A DNA stretch of 64,000 bases from Escherichia coli (GTDB lineage: Bacteria; Pseudomonadota; Gammaproteobacteria; Enterobacterales; Enterobacteriaceae): NCBI GenBank assembly GCA_032372955.1, contig GCA_032372955.1_4725.1. One strand, written 5' to 3'. Shown here piece by piece: positions 20,562 through 58,251 of the stretch (positions are counted from its first letter, which is position 1; every line of letters begins with the position of its first letter). The position numbers and the translations under genes are program-made. The notes beneath the pieces are model-generated. The model saw only the letters and a program-made list of their open reading frames with translations, was not told where the DNA came from and searched no databases.

Positions 20562-20573
20562 TGAAAAGGTGTT

Positions 20574-21899
20574 ATGATGAGCAAACTACTGTTTGAAATT
20601 AACGGGAAAGAATATACACCGCCCCAGGCAGTTATCGGTGCGTTATTACGATACACTGCATACCGGCGTCAAGGATGGTTGTTTGATATTGATGGACCGG
20701 CGTTTATTACAGCGATACAGGATGCTATCGCCCCGAAGAAATTATGCGATAATTACAATACTGAACTGTCGTACAAATTATCGCCTATGGTTCCATATGC
20801 GTCCTATAAGGAACTTTTGACGGGTATATGTTCGTATGAACAAGGTGGGTCCACATCGTACACGCGTGCGCTGGAATTCGTAGAAGAAATAGTGCGTCGA
20901 TTGAAAGTTGATCCGTATAACACGCGTAAGGGAATAATACAACTAATGGTGTACGATTTCTCGGCTAGCCAAGAAATCATCGCGGAGTATAATCCTTACT
21001 TACTTATACGTGCTTTCTTCTGGATCGATGCAGCGCTAGATGATCGTTCCGGACCATGCCGTTTAGCGATTCATGCCGGTGAACGCCAGTTGAAGCAATG
21101 GTTGGAAGATTGCGATATCAATTTGCATGGCATGACGATACCCGATTTCTTCGAAGACTATTTTTCGTTATCGGGACTCGATGATGCTGTAGTAGAACTG
21201 AAACCTACGGATACCGATCCGGTTGTCGTCGAACTTAAAACCGAATCGGATACCAGCAACCATTCGTTCGAGCCGTTAGCGGTAGAGAAGCCTGCATTTT
21301 GTTTAGATGTTGAAAACCTTAGTTTGGAAAAGAATGGAGTATTGCTGGAAATCGGTATCGTGTTCTTCGATCTGGCTAATCCAGAATCCATTGTTAACGG
21401 TCCGCGTATAGATATCTTCCCTGACGTTCATGGTCAAATCGCTGACGGCGGTCGTATCAGTGAATCAACAGTAGAATGGTGGCAAACCAAAGCACCAAAG
21501 GAAGCGCGCGACTATTGTTTTCAACATTGTAAGGCAATGGGTTATAAAGAAGCCATCGCCGAAGTAAATGCGTTCGTCAACAGTATTCGTGACAGAATGA
21601 CTGAATACTACGGTAAAGATACCTTCTATTATCTTGCTCGTGGTGAAACAGATTGGCCTCAATTAGAGCATTGGTTCCGTAAAGCGGGCTTTAAGCCAGT
21701 TTGTCGTTATAACCAGGTTCAGGATATCCGTTCGATGATTGCTGCGTATCAAGACAAACCGGTATCCATCTTAGGCACCAAAGAGTATCCAGACATGGGT
21801 ATTCCGCTGATCCGTCATACCGCTATCGGTGACGCAATCATGGATGCGTACGACGTTGCGTTAGCGCGAAGCATGGCGACGTCTAAGCTACTGAAGTGA
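20574..21899 (+). CDS. protein with C-terminal DEDDh-type 3'-5' exonuclease-like domain
   Basis: FCLDVENLS (Exo I D-x-E-like) and HTAIGDAIMDAYD (Exo III H-x4-D-like) in the C-terminal half. Confidence 0.45.
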   Translation: MMSKLLFEINGKEYTPPQAVIGALLRYTAYRRQGWLFDIDGPAFITAIQDAIAPKKLCDNYNTELSYKLSPMVPYASYKELLTGICSYEQGGSTSYTRALEFVEEIVRRLKVDPYNTRKGIIQLMVYDFSASQEIIAEYNPYLLIRAFFWIDAALDDRSGPCRLAIHAGERQLKQWLEDCDINLHGMTIPDFFEDYFSLSGLDDAVVELKPTDTDPVVVELKTESDTSNHSFEPLAVEKPAFCLDVENLSLEKNGVLLEIGIVFFDLANPESIVNGPRIDIFPDVHGQIADGGRISESTVEWWQTKAPKEARDYCFQHCKAMGYKEAIAEVNAFVNSIRDRMTEYYGKDTFYYLARGETDWPQLEHWFRKAGFKPVCRYNQVQDIRSMIAAYQDKPVSILGTKEYPDMGIPLIRHTAIGDAIMDAYDVALARSMATSKLLK

Positions 21900-22675: not shown

Positions 22676-22700
22676 ACTTACTTACTATAATTACTTATTT
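22676..22700 (+). promoter_or_regulatory. possible variant of the TATATTAC motif upstream of paralog family A
   Basis: ACTTACTATAATTACTTATTTAC about 15 nt upstream of ATG 22714; one extra A relative to CTATATTACTTA. Confidence 0.25.
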
Positions 22701-22713
22701 ACCGAGGTATCAA

Positions 22714-23316
22714 ATGACTGTTTATTTGAAAATGATTAACGGGCATTCCAATGAAATTGCCGACGCTAATCGTCCTTTCAATTTATATCCCGTTCCTGAC
22801 GGAGCTTGTATTGAATTCAATCGTGATCCTACAGGGAATCCGTTCATTAATGTCGTCATGAGCGATAAAACAAAAAGATCGTTTTATCCGACAGGTAATA
22901 CCTATGTCGTTGAGGATAAAACGACGGTATCCAAGTTTGAGTTCGAAGAAAAATTTAGCGCTGAAGATCGTAAAGAGACGTTAGATTTTCTTCAGAGTTT
23001 GGATTCATATCAGAATTTACCGGCGGATATTAAATGCTTAAAAATCGAAGATATGCTGTTAGCATTAAAACATACACCTCTTAAATGTTCAGAGAAAACG
23101 CCACGCGTGTTTAATATCCGTCTATTGAAATACTGTACACAACCGGTTAGAGTGAAAGAGAGTCAAACTCCATTGCTGGAAAAGTTATTCAGCGATTGTG
23201 GTTATCCCCACGTTGGATTTATTTACCCGGAACCAGAAAAATCATCAACCGAAAGAACGGTAATGCACATTGTTGTTAAATTACCTTCGGCGGAGAATAT
23301 CCTGTCGGGTTGGTGA
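22714..23316 (+). CDS. hypothetical protein, paralog family A (member 1)
   Basis: N-terminus MxVxLKMxxG..NAxPFxLxxVPD..IEFNRD..G shared with the next two genes. Confidence 0.55.
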   Translation: MTVYLKMINGHSNEIADANRPFNLYPVPDGACIEFNRDPTGNPFINVVMSDKTKRSFYPTGNTYVVEDKTTVSKFEFEEKFSAEDRKETLDFLQSLDSYQNLPADIKCLKIEDMLLALKHTPLKCSEKTPRVFNIRLLKYCTQPVRVKESQTPLLEKLFSDCGYPHVGFIYPEPEKSSTERTVMHIVVKLPSAENILSGW

Positions 23317-23330
23317 TATACCTCAACCCT

Positions 23331-23356
23331 TGAAGGGGAGGGTTAAATCCCCTTCA
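23331..23356 (+). terminator. GC-rich stem-loop (G-arm first)
   Basis: TGAAGGGGA(23331-23339)/TCCCCTTCA(23348-23356). Confidence 0.45.
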
Positions 23357-23388
23357 TTACTACTACTAGGACTACTAAGGAATAAAAC

Positions 23389-26312: not shown

Positions 26313-26453
26313 ATGGCCTGGTCATACCCCTATCGTATTCTGATAGGTGTTAAAAATAAGAAAGGTCCCCGTAAAGGTAAATGGAGATACACCTGGTTAT
26401 GCGGACAGATAGAACTAAAACCAAGGATCTTCTCTGCCTGGAGTAAAAAGTGA
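26313..26453 (+). CDS. small basic protein with KKGPRKGK motif (46 aa)
   Basis: Not in ORF track (<60 aa); TAGGAG RBS; stop overlaps next start. Confidence 0.35.
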   Translation: MAWSYPYRILIGVKNKKGPRKGKWRYTWLCGQIELKPRIFSAWSKK

Positions 26454-26656
26454 TGATTAATTCTCTACAGCGCCACATACTAAATCATGTTATCAACGAC
26501 ATGATTGGTGTTCGTTTAGTCAAAGGAAAACACAAGAAAGGTTGCAATAAAGGAAAACGGTTCGTGGCGTATGTGGTACCAACGACTGAACGAAGGATCG
26601 CAAATGCTGCGGTGGATTCTATCGCGAAAGCGATGCCGTGGCTTATGTTGGACTGA
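26453..26656 (+). CDS. small basic protein
   Basis: 67 codons; KGKHKKGCNKGKRF motif. Confidence 0.4.
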   Translation: MINSLQRHILNHVINDMIGVRLVKGKHKKGCNKGKRFVAYVVPTTERRIANAAVDSIAKAMPWLMLD

Positions 26657-26682
26657 CTTTTTAGAGGAAAGAGAGGTTACGC

Positions 26683-26874
26683 ATGCAATGTCTCGAAGTG
26701 ACAGAAGCAGGTACGCTAGAATATATCGACCCGATGTATTCATCCCGATTTATCGCCACTCGATATTTGGATCGTGTTTATAACAAACGCGTTAAACGAG
26801 GCCCAGGTAAAGGCAGACAGAAGAAAGTAAGTATTTATAAATGCCATAAAGCGCCTAATCCGGTGTATTATTGA
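26683..26874 (+). CDS. small basic protein with KRGPGKGR motif
   Basis: 63 codons, GAGAGG RBS. Confidence 0.4.
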   Translation: MQCLEVTEAGTLEYIDPMYSSRFIATRYLDRVYNKRVKRGPGKGRQKKVSIYKCHKAPNPVYY

Positions 26875-42456: not shown

Positions 42457-43413
42457 ATGATGGCTGTGCTAACGCCCAGATACTTCACCTTCGTTTGCGG
42501 TAATAAACCGAAATTTAGTTACAGTGATGATATCCATCGCATGCTACGTAACCGCGTAGCAAAAGCGTTGATTGCACTCATTTCGGAGCGTTACGGGTTT
42601 GGTCTCGATTACCCCAAAGAAGGAGGTCGGCTGGTTGCTCCGTTACCACCGAATGATCATCCGATACACCCGTTATTGGATACGGTGATTCTTCCCCTGT
42701 TCACTGAACAGACGCCCCTAACAAAAAGTTTATGTCGCCATTTGCTCTATGATTACAGTGTGCTGTGGGAGCCATTACGTACGATGCAACCACCGCGTAA
42801 TTTAGGCGTATTTGACAAGTATGAAGTGTCAACCATTGTTAATCTGCTTGGCGGCGAACATGCTTTAGGTTGGCGCGTTGCCGATGAACTTACGATAAGT
42901 TGGGGGGTGAGTAACGTCACAGATTACGATATAGACCGTAAACAAATCTGTCTTTGGGAGCATACCGGCCCGACAGTGCAAGAACTGCTTGATATGCCCA
43001 ATCTCTTCTACACGGGAGTGATACTGGGTTATCGGCCAGGGGATAAGGACTTCTACCTCGAAAATCATCGATGGTTAACGCAATATGGGCACACTTTAAC
43101 CTACCCAAAACTTGAAGAAATGGGGAATAATGTTTGGTGTATCCGTAATTTAGCCATTCTTCCCGATAACGAGCATTTTGCGAAAATACTTGCCGATAAA
43201 GGAGGCATGGAAGATATTTACAGCGTGTGTTTTGATTTAGGCATCGCCTGTGTCTTTCGTATCGCTGACGTCGGAGGGAGTCCGCGCATCGAGATGGTTG
43301 AACGCTATCGTTGGGCAGAAGGTACGATACCACCTGATGAAATACTCAAACTTTTCCCTGAGGTTGTGGTTAAACGGATTAATGAGATCCAACCCTACTT
43401 AGCAAAAGCGTGA
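42457..43413 (+). CDS. hypothetical protein
   Basis: 318 codons, GAGGGAAAG RBS. Confidence 0.55.
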   Translation: MMAVLTPRYFTFVCGNKPKFSYSDDIHRMLRNRVAKALIALISERYGFGLDYPKEGGRLVAPLPPNDHPIHPLLDTVILPLFTEQTPLTKSLCRHLLYDYSVLWEPLRTMQPPRNLGVFDKYEVSTIVNLLGGEHALGWRVADELTISWGVSNVTDYDIDRKQICLWEHTGPTVQELLDMPNLFYTGVILGYRPGDKDFYLENHRWLTQYGHTLTYPKLEEMGNNVWCIRNLAILPDNEHFAKILADKGGMEDIYSVCFDLGIACVFRIADVGGSPRIEMVERYRWAEGTIPPDEILKLFPEVVVKRINEIQPYLAKA

Positions 43414-43430
43414 ATGGGTTAATACATTAA

Positions 43431-43480
43431 TTTTCACGGCTATATTACTTAGGTGAAGCAATGCAGTAATCAGCTTCACC
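43431..43480 (+). promoter_or_regulatory. candidate phage promoter, TATATTAC motif (copy 2), followed by a 5' hairpin
   Basis: TTTTCACGGCTATATTACTTAGGTG then GGTGAAGC(43452-43459)/GCTTCACC(43473-43480). Confidence 0.45.
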
Positions 43481-43521
43481 TTGAATTATTAGCAACCAAT
43501 CCAATATAAAAGGATGTCAAG

Positions 43522-43839
43522 ATGAGTATGTTTAAAATGGCTGTATTCGCTATTCGTAATAATCGCGATATCTTAGGTCATTTGGAAGCCGACGCGGAAG
43601 GAACATTGATTCGTTTCATGCGTCGTGTTAAAGAAGCCTTTGATAATCGCGAGTATCTCGTGGAAGTTGTTGAGGACCTTCCACCGAACTCGATGCGTTT
43701 TGTCGCTATCGATGGGTCCGCAACCGACATCCGTTTCATCACCGTTAACGGAACAATGATGATGTTTTCGGGCGATGATACTGTTACAGGGCTGTTTCCA
43801 ATCGTAACGGTTCTGGGTCATTTCTTACGTGCAAACTAA
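43522..43839 (+). CDS. hypothetical protein
   Basis: 105 codons, AAAGGA RBS; downstream of TATATTAC motif and 5' hairpin. Confidence 0.5.
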   Translation: MSMFKMAVFAIRNNRDILGHLEADAEGTLIRFMRRVKEAFDNREYLVEVVEDLPPNSMRFVAIDGSATDIRFITVNGTMMMFSGDDTVTGLFPIVTVLGHFLRAN

Positions 43840-43841
43840 TC

Positions 43842-43874
43842 AGGCCCCCCTAAATGGGGGGGCCTTTATACCGA
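43842..43874 (+). terminator. stem-loop plus TTTATACCG
   Basis: AGGCCCCCC(43842-43850) TAAAT GGGGGGCCT(43857-43865). Confidence 0.5.
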
Positions 43875-43899
43875 TTTTATTTCAACGAGGATCTTTATC

Positions 43900-44322
43900 A
43901 TGAAACTGTTCAAAAATATCGCATTCGCTATCGTCACCACTCTGGCTTTTGTTAGCACGCAAGCACAGGCTAACTGGATGGCTCGTGGGAATAACTGTTA
44001 CGCCTACAGCGAAGACGGTCGTTATCAGATTGGTATCTCCGATCGTTCGCTTGTTGTCATGGGTCAATTTCAATGCCGTGCGCACTATCCGATGTCTGAT
44101 ACCGTAGGAATCAATGGACGTGTATACCAAGCATTGAATATCTGCAGTCCGGACATGCGTTTGATCCCGGTTATTAGCCTTGCGAATACAGATCAAGCTG
44201 CTAGCGCAATCGCCAGCCTTAAAGAAGCACGTCGTGCGCGTATTCGTGCGTTTAACGAAACCATCATCGTAAATACCGATGATATTCAGGCATGCGCTAA
44301 CAGTGTAGCGGCCGTACGTTAA
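43900..44322 (+). CDS. secreted protein (signal peptide)
   Basis: MKLFKNIAFAIVTTLAFVSTQAQA signal-peptide-like N-terminus. Confidence 0.5.
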   Translation: MKLFKNIAFAIVTTLAFVSTQAQANWMARGNNCYAYSEDGRYQIGISDRSLVVMGQFQCRAHYPMSDTVGINGRVYQALNICSPDMRLIPVISLANTDQAASAIASLKEARRARIRAFNETIIVNTDDIQACANSVAAVR

Positions 44323-44358
44323 TAGGTATTGTAACATTTTACTTTCGAGGAAAATATC

Positions 44359-44709
44359 ATGAAAACGTTAACTAAATTGTTTGTTGCTGTTGCTATTCTG
44401 TTCGGTAGTGTTGTCGGTTCAGCACAGGCTGGATTGCTGGATAGCCCAGAGGTTTACGATAAAGCAAAAGCAATCTACATGGCCATGGAGAGCATGACGC
44501 CAGCAGACCTTGAAGAATGTGGTGTTGATTTCGGTACCCCGAAAGAACTTCCCGGAGTTAAGAACCCTACCAACCCCAGCGTGAAATTGAAAGTGGCAGA
44601 CTTCGAAGTTTTCAACCCCTCTTTCAAGACCTACGCGCGGGTTCGTATACTTGTTGATCCAGCAACCGGTGTTGTTCAGGGCGGTGAATATCTCTATCTG
44701 GGTAAATAA
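44359..44709 (+). CDS. secreted protein (signal peptide)
   Basis: MKTLTKLFVAVAILFGSVVGSAQA signal-peptide-like N-terminus. Confidence 0.5.
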   Translation: MKTLTKLFVAVAILFGSVVGSAQAGLLDSPEVYDKAKAIYMAMESMTPADLEECGVDFGTPKELPGVKNPTNPSVKLKVADFEVFNPSFKTYARVRILVDPATGVVQGGEYLYLGK

Positions 44710-44727
44710 TTGAGTAAGGACAATACG

Positions 44728-44937
44728 ATGATTCCAGCTAACCCTCTTTTAAGTATCAATCCTTTCCACAGCAATCCTGGTGTCGATCAGATACAACCTG
44801 CTTTTTTATCACAGTTCCGGGCTGATTATGATGGCGACACCGTAACTGGAAACAGTATCCGTCTGTTGAATCGCCGCAAGAAAGGTCCAGGTAAAGGCAA
44901 AGTAAAAATCATTCAACGTTTAATCTCTTATGTATAA
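44728..44937 (+). CDS. small basic protein with RADYDGD and KKGPGKGK motifs
   Basis: ATG 44728 after AAGGA RBS (track TTG 44710); QIQPAFLSQFRADYDGDTV resembles the RNAP beta-prime NADFDGD loop; followed by stem-loop 44955..44980. Confidence 0.4.
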   Translation: MIPANPLLSINPFHSNPGVDQIQPAFLSQFRADYDGDTVTGNSIRLLNRRKKGPGKGKVKIIQRLISYV

Positions 44938-44954
44938 ACCAACACTGTTTGATA

Positions 44955-44980
44955 AGTGCCGCCTACATATGGGCGGCACT
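44955..44980 (+). terminator. GC-rich stem-loop
   Basis: AGTGCCGCC(44955-44963)/GGCGGCACT(44972-44980); TCTTTATGTTG about 10 nt downstream. Confidence 0.45.
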
Positions 44981-45110
44981 GCTCTGGTCTTTATGTTGTA
45001 CAACAGTTGTCAAGGAGGTATGTGGGTACGTGCGTTGTTACTCGCATTCGCGTTAGTGATGTTTCTAAAATTTGAATCATCGCTTTATCAGAAAAAGTAA
45101 GAAGGAGTTC

Positions 45111-45305
45111 ATGATGGGACATATGCTACTACGGGGATTAACGGGGATGGTTCTAGCATGGATGGTCATTGGGTTTTGTGGGATGATGTTCTTCATGGTC
45201 GATGAACCTGCTGCCCGAATTAACGTAGGGTTATGGTTCGTCTTCTTGATGATAGCGGTATTCGTTATCGTTACCTTGTTAAGGAATGTAGGAAAGCGCA
45301 AATAA
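45111..45305 (+). CDS. small two-TM membrane protein (holin-like candidate)
   Basis: AAGGAG RBS; two hydrophobic helices, basic C-terminus NVGKRK. Confidence 0.45.
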   Translation: MMGHMLLRGLTGMVLAWMVIGFCGMMFFMVDEPAARINVGLWFVFLMIAVFVIVTLLRNVGKRK

Positions 45306-45321
45306 ACGAACGGGAAAAGCC

Positions 45322-45693
45322 ATGGGTTTAAAGACATACGCAAAAATCTATTTCATTTTCACTTTTATAATGATTGGGATTTCTGCAGCGAATATCGATT
45401 TTGAAACAACGACGGAACGCGTTTATTACGTTATCCGAACCATCGTTTGTGTTATAGGGCAGCTTCCCCTTTTGTATATTTGTACATGGTCGACGCGTAA
45501 CATCAGACGGTTTGTCGTGTATGGGTTCGCGTACGTTCTTTTTATGCTTGTTATGTGGCAGGTCGATGCTCGACTGAGCGATATCGCAAATATCATCGCA
45601 ACGGCGATTCTCAGTGCAACAAGCTGGTGTTTATTTTTACCGATGTGTCGACGTGTCGAGGATGAAGGTTATGGGTATCATGGAGAATCTTAA
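45322..45693 (+). CDS. multi-pass membrane protein
   Basis: Three to four hydrophobic segments. Confidence 0.45.
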   Translation: MGLKTYAKIYFIFTFIMIGISAANIDFETTTERVYYVIRTIVCVIGQLPLLYICTWSTRNIRRFVVYGFAYVLFMLVMWQVDARLSDIANIIATAILSATSWCLFLPMCRRVEDEGYGYHGES

Positions 45694-45982
45694 GTTAACT
45701 AATCGCATCCTTGTCGATAGAGAAGTTGTTTTACGCGAGATACGAAGCGTGATGGCGATCTTTAATCTGGATCATCGATCTGCCATTATGTCTATTCTCT
45801 TGAATAAAACAACCTTTAATATCCGGGAGATACGTCGTATTCACAACGGTATGGAACGACGGCATAAATTAAGCGACGAACTCGTACATTGCGAGTTTAT
45901 ACCGCATCAAGTCTATCGACGTATTTATCGTGATCCATGCCTTCGGGATAAATACAACCTATGGCTCGACGGTAGAGGTTAA
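45671..45982 (+). CDS. hypothetical protein
   Basis: Start uncertain (45662/45671/45680); overlaps upstream gene. Confidence 0.35.
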   Translation: MGIMENLKLTNRILVDREVVLREIRSVMAIFNLDHRSAIMSILLNKTTFNIREIRRIHNGMERRHKLSDELVHCEFIPHQVYRRIYRDPCLRDKYNLWLDGRG

Positions 45983-46234
45983 CATCTTTGAGAAACTATA
46001 TGAATTCAAACGATGTACACCTTTACCGCGTTGGATGCGGGAAATGGGTTCTGTTATCCAACGTTATGTTTATTGCCAAACCAGAGGAGACCGTAATTTC
46101 AGTACCGTTTATTTCTGTCGTGGATGTCGGGCAAACATCTGACGCTAACCTGCTGCCCGCTGAATAGAACAACCCGATGACGGGATGCGTTATCAAGACG
46201 CCAGTGGACAGCACCTTATCGTGAGGTTATTAAG

Positions 46235-46732
46235 ATGCAAGGTATTTTACACACGTTGATTTTAGGGCTTGTTATGTTGCTTATCACACCGTTCAGTCAA
46301 GCATCGGTGAACGCAGGACCTAGAATCGATTGCCGGAAAGAGATCGTCGCATGCGCTGTGTATATGGAAGCCAGAGGCGAATCTGTAAAAGGGCAATACT
46401 CCGTGGCGTTTTTAATACATAATCGATCTATGGACTACCGATTCCCTACGAACGTCAAAGACGTCGTACTGCAAAGAGGTCAATTCCCCTGGACAAAACA
46501 AAGGCGTATTGTCATACGCGATCACGCTGCTTTTGAGCGAGCAAGAGCAATAGCACGAGAGGTCGCAACATTACGTTACACTGACATTGCGGCTTACCAT
46601 AAAGCCGACCCAACACGAGGAGCCGTATTCTTTAACGCGAAACATCTTCGCCCTAAACATTTCAGAAAACATGCTACCAATATCACCGTGGTAGACAGCC
46701 ACATTTTCTTTGGTAAACGACGTCACACGTAA
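46235..46732 (+). CDS. SleB/CwlJ-like cell-wall hydrolase (endolysin candidate) with N-terminal signal or anchor
   Basis: CAVYMEARGES..GQYSVAFLIHNR..FP..VKDVVLQRGQFPW matches the Hydrolase_2 pattern; hydrophobic N-terminus. Confidence 0.65.
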   Translation: MQGILHTLILGLVMLLITPFSQASVNAGPRIDCRKEIVACAVYMEARGESVKGQYSVAFLIHNRSMDYRFPTNVKDVVLQRGQFPWTKQRRIVIRDHAAFERARAIAREVATLRYTDIAAYHKADPTRGAVFFNAKHLRPKHFRKHATNITVVDSHIFFGKRRHT

Positions 46733-46746
46733 AACAAATCCGTATG

Positions 46747-46780
46747 CCCTTCCTGCGTAATGCAGGAAGGGTTTATGCTG
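46747..46780 (+). terminator. stem-loop plus TTTATGCTG
   Basis: CCCTTCCTGC(46747-46756) GTAAT GCAGGAAGGG(46762-46771) TTTATGCTG(46772-46780). Confidence 0.55.
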
Positions 46781-46825
46781 TTAAACTGACTAAATGTAAT
46801 CATCCTAATAAAGAAGGAAATCATC

Positions 46826-47083
46826 ATGAAAACGATCAAAGCAACTAAATCCGTTAAAACAAATAAAACTAACGTTCAGCCGCTGCACCATATCACGGTT
46901 TACCGTAACAAAGATAACGCCATCACCAAGTTCCGCGTTCGTGTAAAAGCGGCTGAATCCGTATTAGAGAAATTGGTTGATATGACGGTTTCTGTCGATG
47001 CCTATGATTCGTATCAGAAAGCAATGCTGGCAGCAATTCAAATCCGCGATAAAGCGCTGAACAACCCAATCAACGCATTTTAA
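46826..47083 (+). CDS. hypothetical basic protein
   Basis: 85 codons, AAGGAAA RBS. Confidence 0.45.
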   Translation: MKTIKATKSVKTNKTNVQPLHHITVYRNKDNAITKFRVRVKAAESVLEKLVDMTVSVDAYDSYQKAMLAAIQIRDKALNNPINAF

Positions 47084-54372: not shown

Positions 54373-57300
54373 ATGAGTACAGCATATATAACGGTAGTTA
54401 CCGATAAAGGAGCAGAACGTATCACCGCTGCGTTACTTCCCGACGGTGAGAAACTAAAAATCACACACTTTGCCGTTGGTGATGGTAACGGCTCGATCCC
54501 AACCCCGAACGCCAGCCAAACAGCGCTTGTTCACGAAGTTTATCGTGGGGAAGTTTCTAATATCCACGCGGATGGCGATAGCACAACCAGGATTATCGTT
54601 GAGGGTATTATTCCTGCTGGTCAAGGTGGGTTCTGGGTACGTGAGATCGGTCTGTACGATGACCAAGGTGTTCTGATTGCCGTCTGCAGTGCACCAGAAA
54701 GATATAAGCCTACGCCTACCGAAGGCGCAACCAGCGTTCTTAACTGCCAGGTGCATGTCGTTGTTAGTAATACGAGTGCGATACAGCTTAAGGTGTTGGA
54801 TAACGCATTTCTTCCTGATGCAACGACTGCTACACGCGGTTTAACTATTCTAAGTAATGAAACCGATAGCGACGACGAGACAAAATCGGCCACGCCTAAA
54901 GCTGTTAATGCCGTTCGTAAACAATTGCCCGTTGTTGTAACAGATATTCGTGACCGTACCAGCGGACGAGTGGCTCTACCCGGTATGTTCGGTTATGGGG
55001 CAATACTTACCGACGTTAAGAATTTTAGCGGCACCGCTGGAGTAACAGAATTCTTAACATGGGTTAAAGCCGCAACCCCGGGGATTTACCAGGTATCACA
55101 GTCAGCTGGAGACAATAAAATAATTCCAGGAGTGACGTTTACCGGTCTTATTGAAATCAATTACATCAGCTCGTCACGGAACAGTTCTGGCCCACAAAAC
55201 GAAGAGAAGGGAATATTCTTTTTAGGCGTTAACGGTGACTTCTGGTATAACCGTTATCATGCCAGCAGTGGTGGTTCTCTCATCGGGTGGGAAAACCTGA
55301 AAGTCGATGTCGACGCACTTAAACGTCTCATCGCGCTCAAGGCAGATCTTAATAGCCCTGTGTTCACCGGTATCCCGGCAGCGCCCACCGCAGCAGTTAA
55401 CAATAGCAGTCGACAGATTGCCAACACGGAATTTGTGATGCGCGCGATCGCAGCGCTGATCGACTCGTCACCAGCGACGCTAAATACGCTTAATAAGCTG
55501 GCTCGAGCTATAGGAAGTGATCCTAATTTCGCAACGACGGTAACAAATGCGTTAGCTGGGAAGCAGCCCCTTAACGCATTACTGACCGCCTTTTCAGGTT
55601 TAGCAACATCAGCAAACAAATTCCCGTATTTTACCGATACGAATAAGGTTGATTTAGCGACGATCACACCGACAGCACGGACGTTACTACAGCAATCTAG
55701 CATTGAAAGCATGCAAGCATTGTTGCGGTTATCGGCAACACTATTCCAGCGTTTTCGAGGACAGCTCCCCACCGACGCAAATCTGAATACCTACGGTCCG
55801 GTTGAAGCGTCTGTGGGTATTTGGTCTAAACCAGTATCAACGAACGCGGACGTCGCCCACAATTTCCCTGAAGCAAATGCCGCAGGTTACATTGAAGTGC
55901 TCCCAACTGGGCAATTCGGTGGAACGCAACGTTACACTGTATGTACAGGCAATATTTACGTACGTAGTTTAACGGCAGCATGGAACGGCCAGGATGGTCC
56001 ATGGGATGATTGGCTGAAAGTGGGTAATAATGCAGCCACAGCAGCTAAACTTGCTACCGCAAGAACGATAGGTGGCGTCAGCTTCGATGGTTCTGCTAAC
56101 ATCGATCTCCCCGGTGTTAACAAAGCTGGCACCCAGAATACCAGCGGTAACGCTGCTAGTGCAACCAAGCTACAAACTGCACGTAGAATCGGTGGCGTTG
56201 CCTTTGACGGAACAGCGGATATTGCATTACCGGGTGTGAATGCGACAGGTAACCAAAACACCACGGGGAATGCGGCAACCGCCACGAAATTGAAAACCGC
56301 TGTTACGATCGGCGGTGTGAGTTTCGATGGTTCGGCCAGCATCAGTCTACCGGGTGTTAACGCCGCGGGAAACCAAGACACCAGCGGAAACGCAGGAAGC
56401 GCAACCAAAATTCAGACCGCGAGAACCATCGGGGGTGTTTCTTTTGATGGTACTGCGAACATTGATTTACCAGGCGTAAATAAAGCGGGCACGCAAAATA
56501 CCAGCGGCAACGCGGCTACAGCGACAAAGCTACAGACCGCCCGTAAAATCGGTGGTGTTGCGTTCGATGGTACGGCCGATATCGCATTACCAGGCGTTAA
56601 TGCGGTTGGCAATCAGAATACGACGGGTAACGCCGCGACAGCCACGAAATTGAAAACACCGATCACGATCGGCGGAGTTTCTTTTGATGGCTCTGCTAGC
56701 ATTAACCTACCAGGTGTCAACGCGGCAGGTAATCAAAGCACTTCCGGAAACGCTGGTTCAGCAACAAAACTTCAGACGGCGAGAACCATAGGGGGCGTGT
56801 CCTTTGATGGTACTGCCAACATTGATTTACCGGGTGTGAACAAAGCAGGTAATCAGAGTACCTCTGGTAATGCGGCTACTGCCACGAAACTCCAAACAGC
56901 ACGGAAGATTAATGGGGTCGCCTTTGACGGTACAACTGATATTAGCTTTAGCATTAACGTGCTCGCTTCCAAGGGACGGGTCACCGCTTTAGCTAATGCG
57001 ACCCAGGGCAGCAGTACGGGTATTCAGATGTATGAAGCGTACAATAACGGATACCCTACAGCCTACGGTAACATTGTTCATCTTAAAGGTGCTTCATCGG
57101 TTGGTGAAGGTGAAATCCTCATTGGGTGGTCGGGTACCTCGGGCGCGCACGCTCCAGCTTATTTACGTTCGCGTCGGGATGCAACCGATGCGAAATGGTC
57201 GGAATGGGCGCAGATCTACACATCTAAGGATAGTATCCCGGGTGTGAATACAACAGGTAACCAAAACACCACGGGGAATGCGGCAACCGCCACGAGGTTG

Positions 57301-58251
57301 CAAACGGCAAGGACGATTGGTGGTGTCTCATTTAACGGGACGGCAAATATCAACCTGCCTGGGGTAAACACCACCGGTAACCAAGACACGACCGGTAATG
57401 CTGCCACGGCGACAAAACTGAAGACAGCCCGCACCATTGGTGGGGTGTCTTTCGACGGTAGTGCGAACATCAATCTGCCTGGTGTTAACGCCGCGGGAAA
57501 CCAGAATACATCAGGAAACGCAGCAACGGCAACGAAGTTGCAGACCGCGCGCACGATTAACGGTAAACCTTTCGATGGTACAGCTAATATCACGTTAGCA
57601 GCTAAAGATCTTGGTTTAGCCGATTCTAGTGGATATGTCGGGCGTTTACTGAATATGCGGGTTTTCACATCGTCAGGGACGTACACCCCAACACAAGGAA
57701 CAAAACGGATTAGAGTAACGATAACCGGTGGTGGCGGTGGCGGTGGCGGTTGTCAGGCTTATTCCAACAGCGAAACGTTTTTTGGCGCTGGAGGAGGAGC
57801 TGGCGGAACAGTAATTTCGGTTATAACGGTAGCAGCTGCTAGTTATTCTGTTATAATTGGTTCTGGTGGTTCCGGTGGCTCTGGGGCGACGAATGGGAAC
57901 GGGGGTGGAGATAGTAAATTTGCATCCCTGCTAACTGCTCCCGGCGGGCAAGGCGCAGGAAAAACAACTGTCACAAACACTGGCGGTGGCTATGGGGGCG
58001 CACCTACTACCGGGGATATACGCATTCCGGGTGGAGACGGTAGCGATGGACAAGCCGGTACTCTTGCCGCCGGTGGATGTGGGGGTGCGTCATATTGGGG
58101 CGGTGGCGGTCGCGCTGGTGTTGGCACCGCCCATAACGGCCTCGCGCCTGGTTCGGGTGGTGGTGGTGCTTACGATAACTCTTACTCAGGAACCGCTAAG
58201 CCTGGTGGGCGTGGCGCTAATGGGATTTGCATCATCGAGGAGTTTATGTAA
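54373..58251 (+). CDS. long tail fibre protein (P2 gpH-like N-terminus, tandem 37-aa fibre repeats, Gly-rich C-terminal tip)
   Basis: N-terminus [42 protein letters not shown] resembles phage tail-collar fibre domain; 13 repeats of [40 protein letters not shown]; C-terminus rich in GG/GGxGG. Confidence 0.85.
56028..57600 (+). repeat. in-frame tandem repeats (111 nt / 37 aa) inside the tail-fibre gene; boundaries approximate
   Basis: Nine consecutive units then four more after a non-repeat spacer; protein near-identical, DNA mostly diverged at synonymous sites, but an identical ~40-nt stretch (CAGGTAACCAAAACACCACGGGGAATGCGGCAACCGCCACGA) recurs near 56247 and 57252. Confidence 0.8.
57727..57750 (+). 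repeat. (GGT/GGC)8 glycine-codon microsatellite in the fibre tip
   Basis: GGTGGTGGCGGTGGCGGTGGCGGT encodes an 8-Gly run. Confidence 0.6.

Follow-up and report, generated by a model that had tools for sequence, protein, structure and literature searches.

The NADFDGD motif, which binds Mg, is absolutely conserved in the catalytic domain of the RNA polymerase (RNAP) β′ subunit, a double-psi β-barrel (DPBB; Pfam RNA_pol_Rpb1_2). In Escherichia phage vB_EcoM_Goslar, a 237-kb nucleus-forming chimallivirus (E. coli jumbo phage), both β′-N genes are carried in full, that of the virion RNAP (vRNAP) and that of the nvRNAP, and both are split by group I introns. Chimallivirus RNAP genes have been described before as containing introns with homing endonucleases (PMC11620839; review PMC12908238). 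The window analyzed here, a stretch of 64,000 nucleotides, is colinear with Goslar at ~95% identity (Goslar record 156,820 to 93,138, reverse strand). Three window segments (20567–21279, 22688–23357, and 55590–57500) either lack a BLAST match to Goslar or match it at just 83–89% identity, against the ~95% background; the last one falls in the tail-fibre gene, where host-range divergence would fit.

The subject of this analysis is a 69-codon ORF of the window. Its ortholog in Goslar is gp102 (YP_009820787.1, annotated as hypothetical; record positions 112303–112512), and the ORF is called gp102 below. The Asp triad of gp102 is spaced as in vRNAP β′-N (phiKZ gp180, PhiPA3 gp212, Goslar gp205), and in both an aromatic residue separates the first two Asp residues, with Ala preceding the triad and Thr-Val following. 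A P-A-x-L-like stretch precedes the triad in both, and 18–19 residues are alignable. Unlike β′-N, which comprises 490 aa or more, gp102 has 69 aa and contains neither the DPBB nor any other β′ region. Moreover, the basic hairpin that follows its loop is absent from β′, and the flank of the loop is variable within the gp102 family.

Other described systems share single features with gp102. As in thrombospondin type-3-like, EF-hand, and dockerin loops, D-x-D-x-D precedes a hydrophobic residue and then a basic, amphipathic segment, with Asp at the EF-hand-type positions 1, 3, and 5, and a tandem pair found in 96-aa variants resembles paired F-hands (dockerin loop-helix units). However, the family deviates from the EF-hand/dockerin consensus D-x-[DN]-x-[DN]-G-x-[ILV]-x-x-x-[ED] in having T/V/S at position 6 and Ile at position 12, and none of the Pfam models for EF-hand, dockerin, and TSP3 gives a match. 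Ribosomal protein uS11, a basic nucleic-acid-binding protein, has a similar KGPGxG turn in a strand-KGPG.G-helix/strand arrangement; it is the top PDB sequence match to the gp102 family over 43 residues, with an E value of about 1.3 that is not significant and no fold-level support. In annotation, gp102 is a typical small ORFan of jumbo phages (Goslarvirus, Moabitevirus, Siatvirus), since gp102, TOTORO_00470, and KpLz-2_45 gp286 are all labelled "hypothetical protein". Goslar gp102 is mentioned in no paper found. The protein has thus been deposited already, and it is the 38-residue module within it that is newly delineated here.

The gp102 gene and its surroundings

The features around the ORF are as follows.

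43900–44709, + strand: two upstream genes for small signal-peptide proteins (gp104-like and gp103-like), pN/pS 0.10–0.11
44716–44720, + strand: Shine-Dalgarno sequence AAGGA, 7 nt 5′ of the ATG, read directly and identical in Goslar
44728–44937, + strand: 69-codon ORF, ortholog of Goslar gp102, 86% amino acid identity
44728–44820, + strand: variable N-terminal half (aa 1–31), Pro/Asn-rich, predicted to be disordered (pLDDT <50), pN/pS 0.53
44821–44838, + strand: ADYDGD acidic loop (aa 32–37), the β′-like motif, (nearly) invariant in the family
44839–44856, + strand: hypervariable linker (aa 38–43), from family alignments
44857–44934, + strand: invariant basic tail IRLLNRRKKGPGKGKVKIIQRLISYV (aa 44–69), charge +8.8, a predicted hairpin with its turn at GPGKG
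44955–44980, + strand: 11-bp GC-rich hairpin 3′ of the stop codon, −23.6 kcal/mol, z = −2.9

The ORF runs from an ATG start through 69 codons to a TAA stop, and its product has no signal peptide or transmembrane (TM) segment. It belongs to the Goslar gp102 family by full-length similarity, by its slot between gp103-like and gp101-like genes, and by identical flanks; the same slot is used in seven further genomes. The family comprises 35 homolog clusters at 90% identity in which the frame is kept, all from ~240-kb Goslar-like genomes of E. coli, Salmonella, and Enterobacter samples, with a constant syntenic slot. Its invariant columns are A32, D33, Y34, D35, and G36, followed by K51, K52, G53, P54, G55, G57, and K58, and the basic tail has a pI of 12.

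Across eight genomes, pN/pS is 0.45 for the whole ORF, 0.26 for aa 32–69, and 0.53 for aa 1–31, compared with 0.10–0.31 for neighboring genes. These values show that gp102 is a genuine, fast-evolving accessory gene of Goslar-like chimalliviruses under purifying selection. The constraint falls on a 38-residue module (ADYDGD, the variable linker, and IRLLNRRKKGPGKGKVKIIQRLISYV) and not on QIQPAFLSQF, the flank of the β′ alignment, which belongs to the variable half (aa 1–31). Indeed, in the 96-aa family variants a longer, unrelated N-terminus takes the place of aa 1–31, including the aligned flank. In a published RNA-seq study, every one of the 249 Goslar genes is reported to have exceeded the read threshold at one time point or another (PMC10541120). 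The ORF thus looks to be an expressed gene.

That the ORF might be meaningless, i.e., a chance frame or a decaying pseudogene with a coincidental motif, is highly improbable. The window and Goslar ORFs differ by 10 nonsynonymous and 3 synonymous codons, several database members (P0025, P0030, P0034, and P0035, among others) are truncated or frameshifted, and the family is annotated nowhere, all of which would suit decay. These points are outweighed by the pN/pS values below 1, by the good Shine-Dalgarno sequence and invariant motif, and by the persistence of the module across three phage genera at 36–44% identity with differing DNA. The preliminary description had also allowed for coincidence. 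This holds insofar as the β′ likeness is a short acidic-loop resemblance, but the ORF is not noise, because the gene is under purifying selection and the motif is conserved.

The setting of the ORF between secreted-protein genes and a stem-loop, described earlier, was borne out. The products of 43900–44322 and 44359–44709 have classic signal peptides with AQA at their ends; searches of PHROGs and Pfam with the neighboring small genes gave no family match. On the 3′ side, none of 200 shuffles was as stable as the hairpin, which is kept in Goslar with a compensated stem. It gives a partial terminator-like match and is probably the end of a transcription unit. A scan for sigma-70 promoters and terminators returned no more matches than in shuffles, and an Rfam scan of 43000–47000 returned none at E ≤ 1.

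Just 3′ of the hairpin, an unannotated 26-codon ORF (MWVRALLLAFALVMFLKFESSLYQKK; 45020–45100) is preceded by AAGGAGG. Its product would form a single TM helix, the changes relative to Goslar are conservative hydrophobic swaps, and, judged from these sequence features, it may encode a membrane micro-protein heading a holin-like operon. The following region (45114–46732) is a probable lysis region, consisting of a 63-aa protein with two TM segments, a 123-aa protein with four, and two small soluble ORFs, and ending in an endolysin of the Hydrolase_2/SleB type whose N-terminus is a signal or SAR sequence; a spanin-like lipoprotein is not apparent there.

The module in distant relatives and paralogs

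In general form, the module consists of a loop [AGV]D[FY][DE]GD, a variable linker of ~6 residues, and IRLLNRRKK-GPGKG-KVKIIQRLISYV. An exhaustive family-profile search of 1.84e9 proteins retrieved a 46-aa protein of Serratia phage Totoro, P0158 (MSILQGDFDGDTIIGYYVRLAHKVKKGPGKG...), with E = 9e-5. With P0158 as the query, ~220-aa proteins of Klebsiella jumbo phages were retrieved (E about 1e-3), whose C-terminus reads ...GFVDFDGDVIKAYRLTLSSPIKRGPGKGRIRVVSRFISVFNQ. A profile of the module also retrieved P0159, a 70-aa metagenomic variant with DFEGD, at E = 3e-4. The module therefore occurs free-standing in proteins of 46–70 aa (Totoro-like phages), appended to the C-terminus of ~220-aa proteins (Klebsiella/Serratia jumbo phages), or duplicated. 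Its loop reads GDFDGDT or VDFDGDV in the Totoro and Klebsiella homologs, and the invariant basic tail is likewise conserved in the Klebsiella/Serratia phages.

The Totoro and Klebsiella module genes lie in a mutually syntenic slot near the terminase, unlike the Goslar slot. Their 415-aa neighbor there is a homolog of Goslar gp224. Goslar gp225, the positional equivalent of the module-bearing Klebsiella gene, was considered as a counterpart and found not to be homologous.

The 96-aa Goslar-like variants carry a tandem duplication of D-x-D-x-D, six residues, and IRLL-x-RRK (p < 0.0005). The first copy in these variants is DRDSD, lacking both the aromatic residue and the Gly. In addition, a group of small ORFs elsewhere in the window shares part of the module.

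26313–26874, + strand: tandem trio of small ORFs of 46, 68, and 63 aa (Goslar gp139, an unnumbered CDS, and gp137)

The trio has the basic turn K[KR]G[PC]xKG[KR] without the acidic loop. When the module HMM was run on the ORF set of the window, two of its members scored E = 7e-5 and 0.008, and the third was spotted by eye; the turn is flanked by hydrophobic strands, as in the gp102 tail. Together, the three ORFs make up a small family of paralogous, basic mini-proteins that carries no database annotation. No NCBIfam or PADLOC model matches gp102, the 96-aa form, the Klebsiella protein, P0158, or P0159, and PHROGs and Pfam gave nothing for the 220-aa Klebsiella proteins. Among the libraries searched (Pfam, PHROGs, NCBIfam, and PADLOC), the module and the paralogous basic turn were previously undelineated. 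A scan of IMG/VR for carriers yielded just three loci, all from groups already known.

These comparisons also bear on whether gp102 could be a lysis-associated cationic peptide, in which the basic amphipathic tail would act on the envelope by analogy with the disruptin of phage phiKT, which is cationic and envelope-acting. In Goslar-like phages, its gene adjoins genes for signal-peptide proteins, and the two- and four-TM proteins and the secreted SleB-type endolysin are encoded within 1.3 kb on the 3′ side; the Totoro and Klebsiella phages have a secreted transglycosylase 3–5 kb downstream on the same strand. However, the strong hairpin parts gp102 from the membrane-protein and endolysin genes, the intervening genes in Totoro and Klebsiella phages encode soluble proteins, and in those phages the module forms the end of a 220-aa protein. 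A conserved lysis-cassette context was seen in Goslar-like phages only, not in Totoro or Klebsiella phages. Moreover, gp102 itself lacks both a signal peptide and TM segments, and such a role would leave the conserved acidic loop unexplained. A function in lysis is accordingly rated as quite unlikely.

Likeness to the β′ catalytic loop

As stated in the preliminary description, the ORF matches the Mg-binding loop of β′ with D-x-DGD spacing. Residues 21–39 (QIQPAFLSQFRADYDGDTV) align with the E. coli loop (QLHPLVCAAYNADFDGDQM) without gaps, with 7/19 identities and the Asp triad in register. The counterpart of NADFDGD is RADYDGD in the ORF and QADYDGD in Goslar, so that the three Asp residues, the Gly, and the spacing are kept. 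Relative to NADFDGD, the family has N replaced by R or Q and F by Y, and relatives carry DFDGD, DFEGD, or DRDSD.

Within the window, the pattern AD[FY]DGD, and even D.DGD, occurs a single time in the six-frame translation, the expectations from shuffled windows for the three patterns tested being about 0, 0.01, and 0.23. The 19-mer has an ungapped BLOSUM62 score of 45 against the E. coli loop (next best window 19-mer, 19; maxima of 60 shuffled windows, 25.9 on average and 44 at most) and 57 against the PhiPA3 virion-RNAP loop (next best, 23; null maximum, 35). For the 11-residue flank by itself, the score against E. coli is 14, less than that of the best unrelated 11-mer of the window (23); since the flank alone is unremarkable, the 19-mer score derives mainly from ADYDGDTV. 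The likeness is thus real and non-random within the window, and the motif exceeds shuffled sequences, a comparison that had been proposed earlier.

The closest loops to the gp102 motif are those of jumbo-phage virion-RNAP β′-N. In a tblastn search of 50,697 phage genomes, all matches beyond Goslar were catalytic loops of PhiPA3-like gp212 (phiKZ gp180), with E about 2. An HMM of the β′-N loop and C-terminus (82 sequences) placed gp102 third among 4189 Goslar ORFs (E = 0.03), preceded only by the two exons of the vRNAP β′-N gene itself, with noise beginning at 0.8; the alignment covers only positions 35–53 of 107. A comparison of the gp102 family with β′-N by hhalign gave 83% probability and P = 9e-6 over 18 columns only, and PHROG 2986 (RNAP subunit) was matched by 4 of 36 family members with E values of 0.019–0.16. 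A profile search had been suggested in the preliminary description; Pfam gave nothing for the ORF at E ≤ 10. Likewise, the family profile retrieved no β′ among 1.84e9 representatives at E ≤ 1e-3 and, in the PDB, matched no RNAP chain at E ≤ 10. At database scale, the β′ match lacks significance. No similarity to β′ is found outside the ≤19 residues, and beyond TV nothing aligns with exon 2. A role of gp102 as the β′-N subunit itself (phiKZ gp180 family) was rejected, with ~490 aa before the loop and ~55 aa after it unmatched.

In a scan of all frames, gp102 is the sole contiguous D[FY]DGD in Goslar. The true β′ loops are missed by such a scan because group I introns interrupt the NADFDGD codons. 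The vRNAP β′-N gene reads ...VPAPYLAGLGGD, followed by an intron with the HNH gene gp206 and then FDGDTVSVNV.... The nvRNAP β′-N (gp247) ends at ...LKGYNADF. After it come a full-length group I intron recognized by Rfam, the HNH gene gp186, a further untranslated stretch of ~375 nt, and gp185, which aligns past the loop of 201phi2-1 gp107. In the Goslar record NC_048170, these splits lie outside the window, at 211570–215264 (vRNAP, GGD|FDGD) and 167600–170910 (nvRNAP, NADF|...). The sole DGD codons of the nvRNAP gene are in a stretch of 12–15 nt (GAC GGT GAC GCT) right after the HNH stop, flanked by splice-compatible U/G boundaries and followed by a second structured region, of ~330 nt, that Rfam does not recognize. 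This arrangement suggests, at the sequence level, a "DGDA" micro-exon between two introns.

Dozens of public vRNAP β′-N homologs (P0075, P0077, P0091, and others) have 489–505 aa, 89% of PhiPA3 gp212, and stop at the D|FDGD intron site without the catalytic triad. Because so many database homologs stop exactly there, this intron site is widespread, and automated annotation therefore truncates the subunit where the intron is present. The module does not track the introns, because phages of the Moabite and Klebsiella types have the module and yet a contiguous nvRNAP loop; a link between module and introns was rejected on this basis. Comparison of gp102 with the spliced vRNAP junction DNA gave 31/66 identical positions and 4/22 identical third positions, i.e., chance level, and with these values gp102 was rejected both as a recent copy of the spliced exon junction and as a homing-endonuclease decoy.

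The presence of both complete β′-N genes in Goslar, each intron-split at NADFDGD, also settles the earlier proposal that the ORF is a fragment of a split or degraded β′ N-module. It fails because intact modules exist elsewhere in Goslar. In addition, gp102 has no DNA likeness to the junction and no predicted DPBB, its aligned flank is replaced in the 96-aa members, and its module has a pN/pS of 0.26. Of the outcomes that the preliminary description had named as speaking against a β′-related ORF, intact β′ elsewhere was found, but the motif surpasses shuffled sequences and the ORF looks expressed.

A more distant connection would be an ancient exaptation, in which the loop and its flanking strands are a duplicated piece of chimallivirus virion-RNAP β′-N around the catalytic loop. 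The piece, from a place that is also the intron insertion site, would later have been fused to a basic hairpin and have diverged beyond DNA recognition. Common ancestry of the loop with β′-N is possible because the tblastn matches, whose top entries after Goslar are all gp212 loops, the 83% profile-profile probability, and the distant homologs point there; the GDFDGDT[IV] of the latter, seen as GDFDGDT/VDFDGDV in Totoro and Klebsiella phages, is even nearer than gp102 to the β′-N consensus G[AG]DFDGDT[VI]. The third rank in the β′-N HMM and the PHROG 2986 matches (best E = 0.019) also favor this origin. On the other hand, the likeness spans at most 19 residues, 8 of which dominate, the flank is unconserved within the family, third codon positions agree with the spliced junction no more than by chance (4/22), and no alignment with exon 2 extends past the motif. 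Furthermore, the unit duplicated in the 96-aa variants is DRDSD, the exhaustive and PDB profile searches retrieve no β′, and the same family profile matches unrelated Ca-binding repeats. Taken together, exaptation is considered improbable.

The last of these matches concerns P0156, in which six DYDGDG[IV]VD repeats are recognized by the family profile with E = 7e-10. P0156 is an 848-aa secreted metagenomic protein from outside the window, with six ~120-aa repeats that contain thrombospondin-type-3-like Ca-binding motifs and end in DYDGDG[IV]VDS.D.FP.D..E.QD.DGDG.GDN.D.FPND. This match illustrates how the profile scores of repeat proteins can be inflated by short acidic motifs, and the core motif of gp102 is therefore one common to Ca-binding acidic loops. 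Because the same profile matches thrombospondin-type Ca-binding repeats, the β′ likeness is best read as a short acidic-loop resemblance.

Proposed role and significance

The structure of gp102 was predicted by AF2. Residues 1–41, including the motif, are disordered in the model (pLDDT < 50), and the C-terminal hairpin is formed by strands 44–52 and 59–67 with pLDDT values of 64–81. The models of the 69-aa and 96-aa forms are both of low confidence overall (mean pLDDT 56). A Foldseek search of the gp102 model against the PDB gave no match (all E > 2). No DPBB fold is predicted around the loop, which carries limited weight as negative evidence given such weak models; independently of them, 69 aa are too short for a DPBB plus the other β′ elements.

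The reading that we prefer, with a probability of about 0.5, is that gp102 is an uncharacterized small-protein module combining an Asp-triad cation-binding loop with a basic binding hairpin, and that its β′ likeness is convergent. That the module is an independent family rather than a part of RNAP is very probable. The mechanism is more tentative and, drawn from sequence and models, would be as follows. The Asp triad would chelate a divalent cation (Mg2+ or Ca2+), the basic hairpin would bind a polyanionic partner, most likely nucleic acid, and gp102 would act during infection as a small cation-dependent binding or adaptor protein. The likeness to NADFDGD would then reflect convergence on an acidic metal-binding loop and not a shared function. 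We regard this specific cation and polyanion binding as unlikely to be right in its details.

Alternatively, gp102 might be a functional mimic that inserts its Asp-triad loop into the host or phage RNAP and thereby modulates transcription. By analogy, it might enter the secondary channel, through which Gre/DksA-type factors reach RNAP with acidic tips, or compete for a partner of the catalytic loop. Small size and basic charge, which gp102 has, are common among phage-encoded transcription modulators, its loop is invariant amid drifting surroundings, and the phage depends on two unusual split RNAPs, each of these points being circumstantial. The preliminary description had likewise named an RNAP-interacting mini-protein, to which no finding points in particular. 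However, no homology to known RNAP-binding factors was found in Pfam, PHROGs, NCBIfam, PADLOC, or the PDB, the gene does not adjoin the RNAP genes, and the motif tolerates DFEGD and DRDSD. Such mimicry is hence given little credence. A bolder form, in which D[FY]DGD and the basic hairpin are an exapted β′ catalytic hairpin that docks as a free-standing active-site mimic on RNAP or on a factor recognizing the loop, is slightly less probable still; such a mimic would regulate transcription or decoy a host sensor by its Mg-binding loop.

At present, gp102 adds to the small ORFan accessory proteins known from jumbo phages, and no new kind of system is demonstrated. What is gained is a 38-residue module common to three genera of enterobacterial jumbo phages, with an invariant Asp triad and a KKGPGKG turn, and a basic turn that recurs in several small proteins of one phage. 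Knock-down by CRISPRi-ART is already established in Goslar, which makes the module a tractable target. The case is also a caution for motif scans, since introns hide the true catalytic loops and leave the look-alike gp102 as the only contiguous match. If gp102 were a loop mimic touching RNAP, it would bear on how nucleus-forming phages control their two polymerases, and if it were an exapted active-site mimic, it would represent a new class of phage-encoded polymerase-loop mimics.
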